Sequence record: OK272484.1 | DNA: 64,000 bases | DNA from: Escherichia phage JLBYU22 | Direction: 5' to 3' (one strand) | Part shown: positions 58,350 to 62,818 of the stretch, one piece after another | Layout of the letters: every line of letters begins with the position of its first letter | How positions within the stretch are numbered: the stretch's first letter is position 1 | Position numbers and translations under genes: made by a program | The notes under the pieces: model-generated | The model's database searches: none | Told to the model about the DNA's origin: nothing | The model's input: only the letters and a program-made list of their open reading frames with translations

Positions 58350-59674
58350 TTGATTTCCTCTAAATCTTTAGTGTATTCGGTAACTACATCAGTAGTTTTC
58401 CAATATTCGTTTTCTTCTTTCTTAGCTTTAGCTTCTTCAGCAAGTTTCTTTGCTTCGTCGGAAGTCATATGAAAAATATTCATACCAACTAGTTTATCAA
58501 CATAAGAAGAATACATATCAATTTTAGAAAGTTCTTCTGTCAGTTCTTTACGAGTTTTACCTTGTACAACAATTTCACCTGAAATTACTTTCTTAATGAA
58601 ATGTGCCTTGGCAAAGGCTAAACGAAATGCTGATTCAGTTTCTTTGATTTTGTTATCAATTCGTTTCTGGACATAAGTTTTACGAACTTCAACGAAGTCT
58701 TTGATTAAATCAACTACGTTATCGTAAACTTGCAGCTTTCCTTTCTCATTAATAACGGTAATATTCTGGGAACGACGCTCAATCAACCCGAAGTCTTTCA
58801 TAATTTTCGCGTGACGTTCTTCTTCGTTATCGCTCAAAGAATATTCTTTACGGAATTTAACTTTGAAGCCAAAACCATGCTCACCGCAAGCATCATCCCA
58901 CGTAATGAATCCTTTATCTTCAAGCGGGTCTAAGATTTTACTCACATAAGTTTCACGATCATACTTATACGGAATCTCAGTGATATTCATTTGAGTTCGT
59001 GAAGTAAACTTGTACGTTCCACGAATTTCATATTGACCGTCAATTTCAACGACTTCACCGCGAAATTCTGGGAATTCTACCTTAGGTTTAGTTACTTTCT
59101 TTCCTTGAAGAGCTTGCAGTACAGCTTTCTTGACAGAAGAAACGCTATGAGGAAGAATGTAAGTTGCATAACCAGTTGCAATACCGGAAACACCATTAAG
59201 AAGAACAGTAGGAATAATAGGCAAATAGAAAGCAGGCGGAATGTGTTCTTTATCTTGATGTACCGGAGCATATTCAGTATCTTTATATACGTTATAGAAA
59301 TTTTTACTTACACGAGCAAAAATATAACGACTTGCCGCTGCTTTTTGGACAGTACGAGAACCAAAGTTTCCTTGACCATCTAACAAAGGAAAGTTATTAT
59401 TCCAAGTGTTAGCCATCAAAGCACCTGCGTCTTGTGCAGAGTTTTCACCATGATGATATCCAAGGTCTGCTACACCACCTGCAATAGAAGCGAGTTTGTG
59501 AAACTTATCTTTATTTCCTCGTGCCAAATCAAGAGCTCGAGCAATAACAAATCGTTGAACTGGCTTAAATCCATCAATCATATTTGGAATGGCACGATTT
59601 TCAACCGTGTACATAGCATAAGCCAATGCTTCATTATCAATGATACTTTTTAAATCGCGATTATTCAGTTGCAT
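58346..59674 (-). CDS. 52: DNA topoisomerase II medium subunit gp52
   Basis: 442 aa, same as T4 gp52. Confidence 0.93.
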   Translation of the reverse strand: MQLNNRDLKSIIDNEALAYAMYTVENRAIPNMIDGFKPVQRFVIARALDLARGNKDKFHKLASIAGGVADLGYHHGENSAQDAGALMANTWNNNFPLLDGQGNFGSRTVQKAAASRYIFARVSKNFYNVYKDTEYAPVHQDKEHIPPAFYLPIIPTVLLNGVSGIATGYATYILPHSVSSVKKAVLQALQGKKVTKPKVEFPEFRGEVVEIDGQYEIRGTYKFTSRTQMNITEIPYKYDRETYVSKILDPLEDKGFITWDDACGEHGFGFKVKFRKEYSLSDNEEERHAKIMKDFGLIERRSQNITVINEKGKLQVYDNVVDLIKDFVEVRKTYVQKRIDNKIKETESAFRLAFAKAHFIKKVISGEIVVQGKTRKELTEELSKIDMYSSYVDKLVGMNIFHMTSDEAKKLAEEAKAKKEENEYWKTTDVVTEYTKDLEEIK

Positions 59675-59678
59675 AAAT

Positions 59679-59819
59679 TTACCATACTAGTGAATGTAGT
59701 GCCATAATAACATCAGAAATGAAAAGCACGACTTGAATTAATCCGAACATTACTCCATAATATAGTGCTACCAATAAAGTAGCAAGGGCTAGTGAATAGC
59801 CCAAGATTTTCTTAATCAT
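59679..59819 (-). CDS. Small hydrophobic membrane peptide (46 aa)
   Basis: MIKKILGYSLALATLLVALYYGVMFGLIQVVLFISDVIMALHSLVW; not in ORF track. Confidence 0.45.
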   Translation of the reverse strand: MIKKILGYSLALATLLVALYYGVMFGLIQVVLFISDVIMALHSLVW

Positions 59820-59970
59820 TAGTAGATAACAACACAAATGTTAAATATGCACACATACCCTGGGCTAAAGCTTGTGAAAACACACTGCTAGCATCGATAC
59901 AGATAGTTAAAACACATGCTACTATCCAACAAATAAATGAAATAACTCCTAATAATTTTGCGATATTCAT
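59812..59970 (-). CDS. ac: Ac-like small membrane protein (52 aa)
   Basis: MNIAKLLGVISFICWIVACVLTICIDASSVFSQALAQGM...; size and position of T4 ac. Confidence 0.55.
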   Translation of the reverse strand: MNIAKLLGVISFICWIVACVLTICIDASSVFSQALAQGMCAYLTFVLLSTND

Positions 59971-59980
59971 AATATTCTCC

Positions 59981-60136
59981 TCAACTATTTTTAGAACCAA
60001 TGTACGCGAATAATGATAAAATCGCTAATACGCCCTGAGCTGATGCTTGCAAAAATACTGAAGTTTCTCCAGTTATTACTGTTCCGATGCATAAAAAGAA
60101 CCAACAGAAAAAGGCTATACCGTGAACAAATTTCAT
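59981..60136 (-). CDS. Ac-like small membrane protein paralogue (51 aa)
   Basis: MKFVHGIAFFCWFFLCIGTVITGETSVFLQASAQGVLAIL...; shares FxCW...C...SVF.QA.AQG pattern with the neighbouring Ac-like ORF. Confidence 0.5.
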   Translation of the reverse strand: MKFVHGIAFFCWFFLCIGTVITGETSVFLQASAQGVLAILSLFAYIGSKNS

Positions 60137-60143
60137 ATTTTCC

Positions 60144-60224
60144 TCACTGGCGTCCGAAGACGCCTTTGGTTTTAAGATTGTTACGATAGAACTGCATCAC
60201 GTGTTCGTTGTGGAAATTACTCAT
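60144..60224 (-). CDS. stp: Stp peptide (26 aa), host-defence modulator associated with PrrC anticodon nuclease
   Basis: Translation [26 protein letters not shown] matches T4 Stp as recalled; ATG overlaps ndd stop. Confidence 0.8.
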
Positions 60225-60682
60225 TAATATGCCTGCAAAACGAATTTAAAGTTATCAGCCAACATACGGTTCATTTCTTCAAGTGTTTGATACTCAGAAT
60301 GATGATTACGAGTAAACGCCAAAGCTAACTGACCTTTACCAAATCCTGTCGTCAGAGGTTTCATCTTAGAAGCAGGTAAATAAAATACTGTGTATGGAAC
60401 ATTGTTATTTGCAATAGTACGTGCAAGCTGAGACCGACGTTGACGAATATGACTTAGAACTGCACTGAATCCTTGCTTAGAACGCTGATTACCTACATAA
60501 AATCGTGCTGACACACATGGATTACTAAATAGACGACCATCTAATTTACTTACTAAAAAGTAAAATCCAGGTTTAGATAAAATATCTTTATGCGGAGTTC
60601 CCAAAAACCACTCGCCACCCTTGATTGTACCAATAACAGTAGCGCCTGCGTTGTTCAGATCAGTAACAGTCATGTATTTCAT
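60224..60682 (-). CDS. ndd: Nucleoid disruption protein Ndd
   Basis: 152 aa from MKYMTVTDL; T4 Ndd about 151 aa; track ORF over-extended. Confidence 0.8.
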
Positions 60683-60740
60683 ATTAATTTCCTCTAAATT
60701 ATTTTCTACTCCAAGGCCGCATGAATACGCGGCCATTAAA

Positions 60741-60956
60741 TTAATCGTCGCAGTCGACGCTCAATTCCCAAAACTCTTCTACTGTATAAGTTTCAGTATC
60801 ATTTTCAATACAGAAACGTTCATTACTGTTATTTGCTAAAGTAGCATTAACTGTCATTTTCTCGCTGGTGCTCTTAAGAGGCGAAATACGAATTAACTGA
60901 TCACCATTATCTAAACAGAAAATTTCACCAACTTTTACATCTTTAAAAATTTTCAT
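60741..60956 (-). CDS. Hypothetical protein (position of ndd.1)
   Basis: 71-aa ORF. Confidence 0.5.
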
Positions 60957-60964
60957 AATTCACC

Positions 60965-61072
60965 TCAAGGAGTATAAAATCCAAATGCAGTTGTTGACCA
61001 TCCCATCCAATATGGGAAATTTGCGCCAATGTAAAACATGAGAATATAAAACCAAATGCTTAGTAAATTCAT
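60965..61072 (-). CDS. Small hydrophobic peptide (35 aa)
   Basis: MNLLSIWFYILMFYIGANFPYWMGWSTTAFGFYTP; coupled to upstream ORF. Confidence 0.35.
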   Translation of the reverse strand: MNLLSIWFYILMFYIGANFPYWMGWSTTAFGFYTP

Positions 61073-61269
61073 TATTTTACACCATTCCAAATTGTTTCAA
61101 CTACAGATTTTAAGCCATTTTGATGAATGTCCATTCCGACAACTGCCATCAAATAGATTCCAACTACAACTGAACCTAAGGCAAAAATCAGCATGAAAAT
61201 GAATAAAGCCGGAAAAATATTATCGAAAAACCATTCAATAAATGTAAAAGCACTACGTTTACGCTTCAT
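61072..61269 (-). CDS. Small membrane protein (65 aa from MKRKRSAF)
   Basis: Hydrophobic helix IFPALFIFMLIFALGSVVVGIYLMAVVG; GAGG Shine-Dalgarno before ATG at 61269. Confidence 0.5.
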   Translation of the reverse strand: MKRKRSAFTFIEWFFDNIFPALFIFMLIFALGSVVVGIYLMAVVGMDIHQNGLKSVVETIWNGVK

Positions 61270-61276
61270 ATTTTCC

Positions 61277-61390
61277 TCACATAAATCCAAAGTAAGCGTT
61301 TAATACATCAATCATTAAAACGATTGGGAATATACTCAAAACTATTAGTATTATAACTACATTCCATATAGCTTTAACAATCTTTTTCAT
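61277..61390 (-). CDS. Small membrane peptide (37 aa)
   Basis: MKKIVKAIWNVVIILIVLSIFPIVLMIDVL...; GGAGG Shine-Dalgarno; early promoter directly upstream. Confidence 0.5.
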   Translation of the reverse strand: MKKIVKAIWNVVIILIVLSIFPIVLMIDVLNAYFGFM

Positions 61391-61410
61391 TTTCTGTTCC
61401 TCCGTAGTTG

Positions 61411-61455
61411 ATAGGGTAATAATACCACAGAGGAACAGTCTTGTAAACAACTTTT
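61411..61455 (-). promoter_or_regulatory. Early promoter cassette (family 2)
   Basis: GTTTAC -35, 18-nt spacer, TATTAT -10, leader ...CTATCAACTACGG. Confidence 0.5.
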
Positions 61456-61554
61456 TTAAAAATATTCGTAATAAATGTGAATACCAACTACTACTGCTGA
61501 AACTTGCGCAACCCACCATGCACAAGCAATAAGTACAGAATTCAAAATTTTCAT
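61456..61554 (-). CDS. Small hydrophobic peptide (32 aa)
   Basis: MKILNSVLIACAWWVAQVSAVVVGIHIYYEYF; not in ORF track. Confidence 0.35.
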   Translation of the reverse strand: MKILNSVLIACAWWVAQVSAVVVGIHIYYEYF

Positions 61555-61633
61555 AATAACCTCATCACAAAAGTAAATGTTAAACAAATTAATGGAATAC
61601 TAATTAACCAAACGAAACACCACCATAGTGAAC

Positions 61634-61897
61634 TCATAACTCAATCTCAGCGATTTTCATTTCATTACTATTAATAGCCGCTTTAAGACTATCTGAAAGA
61701 ATTACATTCCAGTGGTCATTCATATGACCATTGACTAAGCGTGTAATTTCTTCGGGAGTTGAAAAATAAGGCGTATCAGACTCCCAATGCGATAGTCCCA
61801 AGCGAGTATAAATCATACCTTCATCATCGCTAGAATATTCAACTGACACAAACTCATCAGTTATTTTATGTTTAGCGTAATAAAATTTAAATTTCAT
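61634..61897 (-). CDS. Hypothetical protein
   Basis: 87-aa ORF. Confidence 0.5.
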   Translation of the reverse strand: MKFKFYYAKHKITDEFVSVEYSSDDEGMIYTRLGLSHWESDTPYFSTPEEITRLVNGHMNDHWNVILSDSLKAAINSNEMKIAEIEL

Positions 61898-61903
61898 TTT
61901 TAC

Positions 61904-62122
61904 TCAATAATCCGCTAAAAGATCGACGATTGCATCACGAAGACACTTATTCGCAATACGTTTAAGAGCAATTTCAGTTTCTGGAGCATTTTGAATAATC
62001 ATTGAATTCAATTCAGCCTCAGCAAACTGAAGTTCTTTAATTAATTCAGCTTTATATTTTCCTTGCCCTTTCTTAGCTTTTGCTCGTTTTAGTTCAGCTG
62101 TAGTAAACATTTTATTCTCCAA
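61904..62122 (-). CDS. Hypothetical protein
   Basis: 72-aa ORF with early promoter upstream. Confidence 0.5.
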   Translation of the reverse strand: MENKMFTTAELKRAKAKKGQGKYKAELIKELQFAEAELNSMIIQNAPETEIALKRIANKCLRDAIVDLLADY

Positions 62123-62139
62123 ATCCGTATCAGTTGATA

Positions 62140-62190
62140 GTTGTATAGTACCACAGTCCTTGTGGTATGTAAACCGTTTTGTGAAAATTT
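62140..62190 (-). promoter_or_regulatory. Early promoter cassette (family 2)
   Basis: Minus strand aaaattttcacaaaacgGTTTACA...TACTATacaactatcaactgatacg. Confidence 0.5.
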
Positions 62191-62191
62191 T

Positions 62192-62749
62192 TTAAATGGA
62201 AAGATACCATCCGTTGTAGTTGCTTTTTCTTACAACCTTACGAAGGTCTTCTCTATCACCAATGAACTTCGGAGTGTACTGGATGACACCTGGGTGAATT
62301 TCTTTAGTGTTGAATATAATTATACAGTCAGCGACTTGATGATTTAGAATGGGCCCTAGATTTATTCCAGAACCGTATGGATACTCTCCGCTGCATCCTG
62401 TTGTTACAGAAATCCAACGCGAGTCAGTTTGATGTGTCTTAACTTCTACGCGAAGTCCGCAGTATCTTGGGTGCGCCAATACATCCCATGCGTATGTATA
62501 CGGGTCATTAACATCCTCTTGACCTTTGTTAACATACCCGCTTAGCCAATCTGCAACAAAAAACTCTGCGTACACCGCGATACGGCATCTTTCAATAACT
62601 TCTGCTTTATCCTGATTTGGATTTTGTTTTAAAGAGTATCTTGCTGTATCAGCAATTTTGACCTTCATTTCACTAGTCAAGTCACTGTTCGATAGGGTAA
62701 ATGTCGGAATCTGAAATAGTCTCTGTAAACCCGGATTCGTTTTCTGCAT
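62192..62749 (-). CDS. denB: Endonuclease IV
   Basis: 185 aa, same as T4 DenB; position next to rIIB. Confidence 0.8.
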   Translation of the reverse strand: MQKTNPGLQRLFQIPTFTLSNSDLTSEMKVKIADTARYSLKQNPNQDKAEVIERCRIAVYAEFFVADWLSGYVNKGQEDVNDPYTYAWDVLAHPRYCGLRVEVKTHQTDSRWISVTTGCSGEYPYGSGINLGPILNHQVADCIIIFNTKEIHPGVIQYTPKFIGDREDLRKVVRKSNYNGWYLSI

Positions 62750-62818
62750 TAAACTTTCCTTTTACGTCGGAATCACCGATATTCATACAATAAATCATAA
62801 TTTTTCCTTAAAACAAAA

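Follow-up and report, generated by a model that had tools for sequence, protein, structure and literature searches.

Positions 60,965 to 61,637 of the window, a 64,000-nucleotide stretch of Escherichia phage JLBYU22 (OK272484.1), very likely hold the ndd.2, DUF7248 (ndd.3 plus ndd.2a), ndd.4 and ndd.5 block together with ndd.6, which encode predicted single-helix membrane microproteins of Tequatrovirus. The five genes are already known: they are real, conserved and long annotated in T4 as ndd.2 to ndd.6. When compared with the T4 ndd region, as a preliminary description of this DNA had advised, the window proved to be Tequatrovirus DNA, 95% identical to T4 (NC_000866) across the locus, and the order and strand of the genes between ndd.1 and denB were those of T4, as expected of orthologues. 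The T4 counterparts are ndd.2, ndd.2a, ndd.3, ndd.4, ndd.5 and ndd.6 (NC_000866, T4p270-T4p275), with amino acid identities of 94-100%. More specifically, 2 of 35 residues differ from T4 in Ndd.2, 2 of 37 in Ndd.4 and 1 of 28 in Ndd.6; none of the 32 residues of Ndd.5 differs, nor, against re-sequenced T4, any of the 65 of the DUF7248 protein. The preliminary description had called such genes rarely annotated and implied that they were new. In fact they are annotated in NC_000866, are represented by PHROGs 4135, 2401, 3098 and 5011 and by Pfam DUF7248, and are already covered by T4 transcriptome, proteome and CRISPRi screens, so that rediscovering them changes little. Annotation is uneven across Tequatrovirus records, and ndd.4 is left unannotated in several of those sampled.

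Gene content and arrangement of the block

Four ATG-start ORFs of 35, 65, 37 and 32 aa lie on the minus strand within 60965-61554, each with one predicted hydrophobic helix, as originally described. The best 19-residue Kyte-Doolittle stretches score 1.43 (Ndd.2), 2.71 (DUF7248), 3.06 (Ndd.4) and 2.17 (Ndd.5), values consistent with the membrane location that had been proposed. The cluster of four was incomplete, since it left out a fifth, similar ORF, ndd.6. All five ORFs match PHROG families, and the proteins (28-65 aa) each consist of one predicted transmembrane helix with short flanks. ndd.2 (60965..61072, minus strand; ATG start; phrog_4135, E 3e-23) encodes 35 aa (MNLLSIWFYILMFYIGANFPYWMGWSTTAFGFYTP) with zero charged and 12 aromatic residues, and shares the motif F..G.N..YW.G with its Kanagawavirus homologues. 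ndd.4 (61277..61390, minus strand; ATG start; phrog_3098) encodes 37 aa, with the N-terminus MKKIVK ahead of its predicted transmembrane helix. ndd.5 (61456..61554, minus strand; ATG start; phrog_5011) and ndd.6 (61551..61637, minus strand; phrog_8851) encode 32 and 28 aa. A search for paralogy among the five peptides returned short stretches only (SVVVGI in the DUF7248 protein versus AVVVGI in Ndd.5, 14/16 nt), which are insufficient for a common origin.

The preliminary description had the ORFs joined by overlapping stop and start codons and preceded by Shine-Dalgarno sequences. Of the three junctions inside 60965-61554, DUF7248/ndd.2 has a 1-nt stop-start overlap (TAATG), ndd.4/DUF7248 a 7-nt gap and ndd.5/ndd.4 a 65-nt gap containing a promoter, so that the overlap claimed throughout occurs once. 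Shine-Dalgarno sequences are present before ndd.4 (GGAGGA), DUF7248 (GAGGA) and ndd.5 (GAGG), and the one before ndd.2 is weak; ndd.2 is probably translationally coupled to DUF7248. Outside that span, ndd.6 has ATGA overlaps at both ends, its start with the stop of the gene upstream and its stop with the start of ndd.5.

The gene upstream of ndd.6 is one of two, here called F and G, that the window has and T4 lacks between ndd.6 and denB. Gene F (61634..61897, minus strand; phrog_2390) encodes a soluble, RB69ORF270c-like protein of 87 aa and lies upstream in the transcription unit of ndd.6 and ndd.5; in T4 only its last 8 codons remain. Gene G (61904..62110, minus strand; phrog_4535), which is absent from T4, encodes a soluble protein of 68 aa and is the first gene after an upstream early promoter, TTTACA-17-TACTAT (62145..62173, minus strand), whose spacer contains a stem-loop of 7 bp. 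The junction at which the presence and absence of F and G diverge from T4 falls in the promoter-leader/start region. In Dhakavirus AnYang, a 25-aa ORF similar to ndd.6 is found upstream of the F homologue.

We then assessed the distribution of the block by tblastn, which recovered full-length copies of the genes in about 490-650 phage records. ndd.2 is full length in 515 of 518 records, ndd.4 in 595 of 595 and ndd.5 in 490 of 490, and ndd.6 is found in 650 of 661. The ndd.5 matches all have at least 90% identity and come from T4-like (Tequatrovirus-type) records only. ndd.4, ndd.2 and DUF7248 extend beyond the genus into other Tevenvirinae genera; about 100 of the ndd.4 records, from other genera, are below 60% identity, and by sequence comparison ndd.4 is among the most widely conserved genes of the array. 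The block sits in the non-essential, recombination-prone ndd-denB region, and gene content of this interval varies between genera.

The DUF7248 gene (61072..61269, minus strand; PF23906, phrog_2401) holds T4 ndd.3 and ndd.2a in one frame of 65 aa. NC_000866 is 1 nt short at the position equal to window 61264, and the 65-aa ORF is annotated in re-sequenced T4 (MT984581). The ndd.2a/ndd.3 split is therefore due to the 1-nt gap in NC_000866, and the two T4 genes are one DUF7248 gene. A basic N-terminus (MKRKR) precedes one long helix, and the C-terminal tail, NGLKSVVETIWNG, is conserved. The protein matches the Pfam model with 71.9 bits (cutoff 27), residues 6-63 covering model positions 4-57 of 58, and its AlphaFold2 model has helices at 4-17 and 19-64 (pLDDT 80). 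Members of DUF7248/phrog_2401 have the same short N-terminus, single transmembrane helix and GLKSVVExIWNG tail, with no structural difference from the protein in the window, and G52, K54, W61 and G63 are invariant among 22 diverse members. A profile search for DUF7248 returned 103 clusters of 40-99 aa, many of them on contigs of about 165-175 kb; every named one is from T4-like phages. Two distant members are located among phage replication genes.

Coding status and start codons

Within-genus variation was analyzed in 17 Tequatrovirus copies. Variable sites at codon positions 1/2/3 number 6/3/13 in ndd.2, 5/4/21 in DUF7248 and 1/0/9 in ndd.5; with ndd.6 included the sum is 15/7/47, that is, 47 of 69 sites at third positions (chi-square p = 3e-9), an excess indicating that these ORFs are more than chance. 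In-frame pN/pS values are 0.13 for ndd.2, 0.074 for DUF7248, 0.061 for ndd.5 and 0.09 for ndd.6 (range 0.061-0.133), versus 0.4-5 in shifted frames. The peptide sequences of these four genes are under strong purifying selection. ndd.4 lacks the third-position excess within the genus (3/1/1) and has oddly few synonymous changes (pS 0.005), so that the case for its being coding is made by conservation of the protein across genera, not by pN/pS: P22 and D28 are invariant in the cross-genus alignment. Its 37-aa core is unbroken in 17/17 copies. RNA structure was considered as the cause of the low synonymous diversity and rejected (fold z -1.16; one compensatory pair only in a cross-genus alifold). 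Frameshifts in relatives, which the preliminary description had named as a sign against coding, were not the pattern found: indels among the 17 copies either keep the frame or fall between the ORFs or beyond them, barring three rare lesions, namely a nonsense codon in DUF7248 of a single T2 record, an insertion of 2 nt at the ndd.6 end in one IMG/VR contig and a match in two pieces in MT682710. Natural lesions of this kind, though occasional, show that constraint is weak when the phages are passaged in the laboratory.

These data bear on two ways in which the five short ORFs could have been misread. According to one, they are chance frames in the AT-rich, promoter-rich filler of a hyperplastic region, and their conservation comes from recent ancestry or regulatory DNA. 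We regard this as highly improbable. The genus has diverged by just 1-5% across the segment, the T4 proteins have escaped mass spectrometry, no knock-down phenotype was seen and the ndd.4 DNA, nearly without synonymous variation, resembles a nucleic-acid element; but chance frames do not account for a third-position excess and pN/pS below 0.14 in four genes that vanish in shifted frames, for matches to curated PHROG and Pfam models, or for protein homologues encoded by diverged DNA in Gaprivervirus, Dhakavirus and Kanagawavirus, where invariant residues stand among many synonymous differences. Nor does a nucleic-acid element find support in the non-significant ndd.4 fold or in Rfam, which has no match in 59500-62800 at E up to 1. 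According to the other, the true products are longer TTG- or GTG-start ORFs (41, 72, 82 and 43 aa), which some GenBank records list. The window has no stop in these frames, SA20RB carries an annotation for the 82-aa form, and upstream of ndd.4 the frame continues over 57 codons in 12 of the 17 copies and over 50 in a further copy. Against this, the TTG at -45 from which the ndd.4 extension starts is lost in 4/17 relatives, with the frame closed after 22-32 codons, and the extension runs across the early promoter and overlaps ndd.5 out of frame, where substitutions follow the ndd.5 frame. The strong Shine-Dalgarno sequences are correctly spaced before the ATGs, and homologues in other genera start at ATG (MKK...). 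T4 itself uses ATGs upstream of those in the window for ndd.2 (36 aa) and ndd.4 (42 aa), which the window lacks; the ndd.4 one reads ACG in 15/17 copies, the window included. Longer products are thus so improbable as to be nearly negligible; the preliminary description had rightly taken them for over-extensions, and annotation should follow the short ATG forms.

A further alternative grants function to DUF7248, Ndd.4 and Ndd.2 alone and makes ndd.5 and ndd.6 mainly translated spacers that pass ribosomes on from gene F to the genes downstream or protect the mRNA. The restriction of ndd.5 to Tequatrovirus-type records, the very short ndd.6, the ATGA overlaps that chain the two and the retention in T4 of the 8-codon F remnant before ndd.6, with the same overlap, all fit such a role. 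It is nevertheless improbable: the low pN/pS of both genes (0.06 and 0.09) indicates that the amino acid sequence itself is constrained, an ndd.6-like peptide is present in other genera, and what follows ndd.5 is a stem-loop and promoter and no coupled gene.

The ndd.4 promoter and its stem-loop

The early promoter that the preliminary description had placed before one of the ORFs was recovered upstream of ndd.4. It is a T4-type, sigma-70-like promoter, TTTACA-17-TATTAT with TG (61419..61447, minus strand), with 10/12 consensus matches and the best score of the region. It is common to T4 and the window, and the SA20RB record labels the homologous site a T4 early promoter. Overlapping it is a 15-bp stem-loop (61394..61438, minus strand; -23.2 kcal/mol, z -5.05) that none of 200 shuffled sequences equals in folding. 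The 5' arm (61438-61424) lies in the promoter spacer; the loop (61423-61409) contains the larger part of the -10 hexamer, together with the site where transcription is expected to begin; the 3' arm (61408-61394) includes the ndd.4 Shine-Dalgarno GGAGGA (61398..61403, minus strand). The stem-loop is kept with two-sided (compensatory) changes in VR7, WG01, K305 and MY742, in folds made per sequence and anchored on GGAG, an approach biased towards finding structure in each. RNAalifold on a MAFFT alignment of the cross-genus promoter-leader, in which the arms were misaligned, predicted 0 pairs.

This arrangement corresponds to a PeSL (promoter-early stem-loop) cassette of T4-type phages (Arbiol et al., 2010, PMC2839356; Comeau et al., 2014, PMC4122927). 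The definition includes a stem-loop between -35 and -10 or overlapping -10 (PMC2839356), the consensus of the PST/T4 pair is TTTACW-N17-TAYWAT, which the ndd.4 promoter fits (PMC4122927), and ndd.4/.5 is named as a PeSL-exchanged cassette (PMC4122927, Fig. 6A). The features of PeSL cassettes given there, an early T4/PST-type promoter, the placement of the stem-loop, a 3' Shine-Dalgarno with ATG and a hyperplastic location, are all seen here. Small genes in the flanks have also been gained, lost or exchanged, as is typical of such cassettes: F and G are present here and absent from T4. In the window the Shine-Dalgarno itself forms the 3' arm, a point not found in the available text of PMC2839356 or PMC4122927; read-through RNA is accordingly predicted to have its translation occluded, instead of or in addition to being terminated. 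No U-run follows the hairpin in the sequence, so terminator activity is not predicted.

With the ndd.4 Shine-Dalgarno base-paired to the promoter spacer in the stem-loop, the ribosome site would be buried in RNA reading through from upstream, or that RNA would be attenuated. RNA from the cassette's own promoter would start inside the loop and be open to translation; from about 61412 it is predicted to be unstructured (0 kcal/mol). In long upstream transcripts of the T4 late genes e, soc, 49 and I-TevI, the ribosome-binding site is folded into a hairpin, and an internal promoter provides a shorter, translatable RNA. The ndd.4 hairpin may be analogous, with the difference that in those genes late promoters serve to delay translation, whereas the internal promoter of ndd.4 is early.

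Expression and possible functions

We propose two early transcription units in the block. One would run from the promoter at 62173 through G, F, ndd.6 and ndd.5, with ATGA coupling, and the other from the promoter at 61447 through ndd.4, DUF7248, ndd.2 and ndd.1, with TAATG coupling between DUF7248 and ndd.2. The peptides would insert in the host inner membrane within minutes of infection. By the positive-inside rule the DUF7248 protein, Ndd.4 and Ndd.5 are expected to be oriented N-in, which would place the conserved 20-residue tail of the DUF7248 protein in the periplasm.

Published T4 data concern both expression and need. ndd.2 to ndd.6 are classed 'early' by transcript (Class_Tx) and 'NA' by protein (Class_P), and none of the five proteins was found by mass spectrometry (PMC9697503, Table S2), as expected for such small hydrophobic peptides. 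In the sa-delta-9 deletion, which spans the genes from 52.1 to denB, phage yield remains at 50% of the wild type (PMC6071114), and all six T4 ORFs are scored 'Not Fit' by CRISPRi-ART (PMC11879866, supplementary file 15); the genes are covered in that supplement and not mentioned in the main texts of HIDEN-SEQ and CRISPRi-ART. According to the T4 literature, ndd.2-ndd.6 are dispensable in laboratory E. coli.

Comparisons with PHROG, Pfam, NCBIfam and PDB detected no similarity to any family of known function. NCBIfam gave no match for any of the five, and searching PDB sequences with profiles of DUF7248 and Ndd.4 gave chance-level matches only (E 0.4-0.6). The copied database names 'outer membrane protein', 'periplasmic protein' and 'naphthalene 1,2-dioxygenase' are without basis; 'periplasmic protein', as inherited by DUF7248, is a localisation guess. 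Holins or antiholins were considered and rejected, given the early promoters, the ndd-denB location and the early T4 transcripts, as opposed to a late position beside endolysin; a Holin_BlyA match, on one distant DUF7248 member only, was sub-threshold (17.4 bits vs 27). Small inner-membrane proteins with a single transmembrane helix and an accessory, dispensable role include T4 Imm, Sp, Ac and RI, which are expressed early, and E. coli AcrZ and MgtS. The five peptides resemble these in size, single helix and, by analogy, accessory role, with no sequence similarity detected. We suggest that their role is accessory and tied to particular hosts or conditions, and that they modulate processes of the envelope or membrane and do not serve core replication functions; the action on host membrane proteins that the preliminary description had put forward is conjectural.

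Two more specific activities can be considered. T4 stimulation of phosphatidylglycerol synthesis is lost in the sa-delta-9 deletion (PMC6071114), and because the genes map within it, one or more of the microproteins might be the early factor behind this stimulation, acting on the inner-membrane phospholipid synthesis machinery; we consider this a doubtful candidate function. A weaker suggestion comes from a 17-residue motif. Among 27 DUF7248 profile matches were four large proteins, two with PF10145, each with the motif in 5-10 stretches, and hhalign of the DUF7248 tail with the tape-measure-protein W-repeat gave 66% probability over 17 columns only. Since the periplasmic tail of DUF7248 would resemble a siphophage tape-measure repeat unit, it might interfere at the membrane with the DNA entry of competing phages. 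Ndd.4, Ndd.2 and DUF7248 recur in several genera infecting different Enterobacterales, which makes them reasonable first targets. Together with Ac and 52.1, the five peptides make the 52-denB interval dense in early membrane microproteins.

Five small genes for predicted membrane peptides between ndd and denB

All genes at 58.3-62.8 kb of the window are on the minus strand, in the order gp52 topoisomerase subunit, 52.1, ac, an ac paralogue, stp, ndd, ndd.1, the region of ORFs A to D, two soluble ORFs and denB. The four small hydrophobic ORFs that the preliminary description placed between ndd and denB are genuine and all start with ATG: ORF A (60965-61072, 35 aa), ORF B (61072-61269, 65 aa), ORF C (61277-61390, 37 aa) and ORF D (61456-61554, 32 aa), with top 19-residue hydropathy values of 1.43, 2.71, 3.06 and 2.17, respectively. 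ORF E (61551-61637, 28 aa, hydropathy 2.31), absent from that description, shares an ATGA with D at one end and another with the upstream gene F (87 aa), whose stop overlaps the E start, at the other. N-terminal positive charges are found in B, C and D, the sole charge of E is C-terminal, and A has no charged residue, one-third of it being aromatic. In the AlphaFold2 model of B (mean pLDDT 80), a single long helix (19-64) comes after a short amphipathic one (4-17).

The three ORFs listed after gp52 (52.1, ac and the ac paralogue) are small and hydrophobic, and stp encodes 26 aa identical to T4 Stp. The paralogue, a second Ac-like membrane ORF of 51 aa (59981-60136, minus strand) located between ac and stp, shares the motif SVF.QA.AQG with its counterpart at 59812-59970; it is missing in T4, and a similar one is present in phage TH57. 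ORF B and the ac paralogue are preceded by identical 16-nt ribosome-site modules (minus strand, GTGAGGAAAATATGAA), at 61265-61280 and 60132-60147, respectively.

Longer, non-ATG versions of these ORFs, reported by an ORF finder and in some records, were unsupported, in agreement with the earlier view that they are over-extensions. More specifically, the TTG at -45 that would start an 82-aa form of C is missing in 4 of 17 Tequatrovirus genomes, with the frame closing after 22-32 codons, and the extension runs across a promoter and overlaps D in a different frame. The ATG that opens the five extra codons of T4 ndd.4 (the orthologue of C) reads ACG in 15 of these 17 genomes, and the extra Met codon of T4 ndd.2 (the orthologue of A) is ATA in the window and five others.

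Codon-position and pN/pS analysis was performed on the 17 aligned copies. Variable sites at codon positions 1/2/3 numbered 6/3/13 for A (pN/pS 0.133), 5/4/21 for B (0.074), 1/0/9 for D (0.061) and 3/0/4 for E (0.090), compared with 4/4/19 (0.096) for the neighbouring ndd.1; pooling A, B, D and E gives 15/7/47 (p = 3e-9). Both shifted frames gave ratios of 0.4 to 5 or zero synonymous changes. The preliminary description regarded frameshifts in related phages as evidence against coding. Next to the low in-frame ratios, three disruptive lesions were found: a gap in the T4 reference NC_000866, a premature stop at codon 45 of B in one T2 record, and a 2-nt insertion in ndd.6 (the orthologue of E), three codons ahead of its end, in one IMG/VR contig. 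Other indels comprise a 3-nt deletion within ndd.6 of phage FL33, a 12-nt deletion spanning the B stop and A start in phage a51, where both ORFs are still annotated, a length-variable A-run after the D stop and a 1-nt difference in the spacer ahead of C. Counting tblastn matches that cover at least 80% of the peptide, B was found in 496 of 499 records, Ndd.4 in 595 of 595, Ndd.5 (D) in 490 of 490, Ndd.6 in 650 of 661 and Ndd.2 in 515 of 518; since pieces were joined, these counts include a few frameshifted copies, and a two-piece match occurred in one of 40 evenly sampled rows for B. As the analysis shows, the five microprotein genes are conserved and correctly delimited, and they lie in two early transcription units.

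Correspondence with the T4 ndd genes

At the DNA level, the segment 60700-61950 had matches of 80-99% identity in 498 phage records, almost all of them Tequatrovirus. The top match stands at 97.6%, and the window is therefore a relative of T4 rather than T4. The region is collinear with NC_000866 at 95% identity, apart from about 440 bp, carrying genes F and G, that are absent from T4. Comparison with the T4 ndd.1-ndd.6 region, which the preliminary description had proposed, recovered the same genes: ndd.2, ndd.2a, ndd.3, ndd.4, ndd.5 and ndd.6 are annotated at matching positions, and the translations differ by 0-2 residues. ORFs A-E match PHROGs 4135, 2401, 3098, 5011 and 8851 (E-values of 3e-17 to 3e-30), and B scores 71.9 bits with Pfam DUF7248 (cutoff 27), of which it is a full-length member. 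The implied novelty thus falls away: A-E are the known T4 ndd.2-ndd.6 genes within a known type of regulatory cassette. The original observation was correct in itself.

ORF B corresponds to two T4 annotations. A single base at 61264, in codon 2 of B, is missing only in NC_000866 (L001, about 4126) among the 17 copies; it is present in T4 assembly OZ209057 and in 15 relatives. The T4 'Ndd.3' is exactly the frameshifted translation from the ATG of B, and 'Ndd.2a' is the last 40 residues of B. Two more T4 records match B in a single piece at 100%, and re-sequenced T4 (MT984581) is annotated with a 65-aa 'Ndd.3' containing ndd.2a in frame. As the base is missing only in NC_000866 and B is intact in other T4 records, the ndd.3/ndd.2a pair is an artefact of a reference error or a stock-specific lesion.

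In the T2 record mentioned above (PV648363; L009, 1033-1035), the stop at codon 45 leaves the N-terminus and transmembrane helix of B and removes the conserved tail. Natural in-frame chimeras occur in Shigella phage Sf25 (gp120, P0007) and in one T4 record, a 151,790-bp contig (P0008); one joins an Ndd.4 N-terminus to a DUF7248 C-terminus and the other an Ndd.5 N-terminus to a DUF7248 tail, both apparently through deletions between short similar stretches coding for the hydrophobic helices. Genes F (87 aa) and G (68 aa), at 61634-62110, are missing in T4, where the G leader is fused to the final 8 codons of F (MKIAEIEL; L001, 4497-4530), and this remnant mini-ORF retains the ATGA overlap with the ndd.6 start. 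The GenBank product names 'outer membrane protein', 'periplasmic protein' and 'naphthalene 1,2-dioxygenase' on these ORFs are baseless and have been copied onward. Several GenBank records label as ndd.5 a spurious overlapping 37-aa ORF that spans the promoter (61374-61487), and several others leave ndd.4 without annotation.

Early promoters and the ndd.4 hairpin

Two sigma-70-type early promoters of T4 pattern are located in the region, one at 62173..62145 ahead of G and the other at 61447..61419 ahead of C, the latter bearing out the early promoter previously placed there; phage SA20RB carries early-promoter annotations at both homologous sites. The promoter before C sits inside a 15-bp hairpin on the minus strand. 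Its 5' arm (61438-61424) falls within the promoter spacer, and most of the -10 hexamer lies in its loop (61423-61409) together with the expected start of transcription. Its 3' arm (61408-61394) includes the Shine-Dalgarno of ndd.4, GGAGGA, whose GGAG is presumably the motif cleaved by T4 RegB in early mRNAs. The fold reaches -23.2 kcal/mol (z = -5.05; none of 200 shuffles as good), and the same hairpin in T4 -20.9 kcal/mol (z -4.0). RNA starting at about 61412 is predicted to be unstructured (0 kcal/mol). An equivalent arrangement is formed by other arm sequences in VR7, WG01, K305 and MY742; when hairpins are anchored on GGAG, two-sided changes appear beside it across genera, for example C-G to U-A, G-C to A-U and A-U to U-A. 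PEi26 has instead a smaller hairpin downstream of the -10.

The combination of early promoter, stem-loop and Shine-Dalgarno before ndd.4 is the PeSL cassette as defined by Arbiol et al. (PMC2839356), and Comeau et al. name ndd.4/.5 as a PeSL-exchanged cassette (PMC4122927). On upstream read-through RNA, the ndd.4 ribosome site would stay closed or the RNA would be attenuated; on RNA from the cassette's own promoter, the site would be open. The upstream promoter (62145-62173) has its own 7-bp spacer stem-loop (ACCACAAGGACUGUGGU), a second PeSL-like element in which the Shine-Dalgarno is not involved.

Within Tequatrovirus, ndd.4 (61277-61390) has five variable sites in 114 nt, just one of them at a third position (binomial test, p = 6e-5), and a pS of 0.005 versus 0.10-0.23 in neighbouring genes. 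Genus-wide, at least 99% identity is seen for ndd.4 in 312 of 494 records versus none of 470 for ndd.2. The low-variation block matches the extent of the ORF rather than the promoter, and synonymous differences are present between genera. A search of the block for an overlapping ORF found none, the ndd.4 RNA fold was not significant, and Rfam gave no match around the gene. The simplest idea is recent recombinational spread of the PeSL-ndd.4 cassette.

Distant relatives and functional leads

Outside Tequatrovirus, Gaprivervirus (VR7, TH57) encodes a 68-aa DUF7248 protein and a 38-aa Ndd.4. Ndd.4 is also present in Dhakavirus (WG01, AnYang), AnYang having an Ndd.6-like 25-mer ahead of its F homologue. 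In Kanagawavirus (Kosakonia 305, Edwardsiella PEi26) and one Enterobacter phage, promoter-ndd.4 is followed by an Ndd.2-like 39-41-mer, and PEi26 also encodes a 64-aa DUF7248 protein. Ndd.4 residues M1, K2, K6, A7, I8, N10, V17, L18, I20, F21, P22, V24, I27, D28 and F34 are invariant; the conserved patterns are F..G.N..YW.G in Ndd.2 and I..xGLKSV....WNG in DUF7248.

A DUF7248 profile search of 1.84 billion representatives returned 27 matches, mostly single-helix proteins of 47-76 aa that share this tail, and a word-indexed search gave 103 clusters of 40-99 aa in which every named member comes from T4-like phages. Two distant members neighbour phage replication genes. Four of the 27 are long proteins, two with PhageMin_Tail (a tape-measure domain), and all four carry repeats such as WNGLKSIVDTIWGG behind hydrophobic segments. 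The DUF7248 tail NGLKSVVETIWNG (61075-61134) resembles the post-hydrophobic repeat unit of tape-measure proteins P0012 and P0016, with an hhalign probability of only 66% over 17 columns, a weak second functional lead. From composition, our impression is that the two long proteins whose sequences were inspected are not from enterobacterial phages.

In T4, ndd.2-ndd.6 transcripts fall in the early class, and their protein products went undetected (PMC9697503, Table S2); knock-down of each of these ORFs received the CRISPRi-ART score 'Not Fit' (supplementary file 15 of PMC11879866). The peptides may enter the inner membrane shortly after infection and serve accessory, host- or condition-dependent functions. 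The T4 deletion sa-delta-9, which removes 52.1 through denB, halves phage yield, and the stimulation that T4 otherwise exerts on phospholipid synthesis, notably on that of phosphatidylglycerol, is lost (PMC6071114). Its authors found the lipid effect explained by no gene of the interval, several products of which are predicted membrane proteins (PMC6071114). This lipid phenotype, mapped to the interval, is a candidate function for the peptides.
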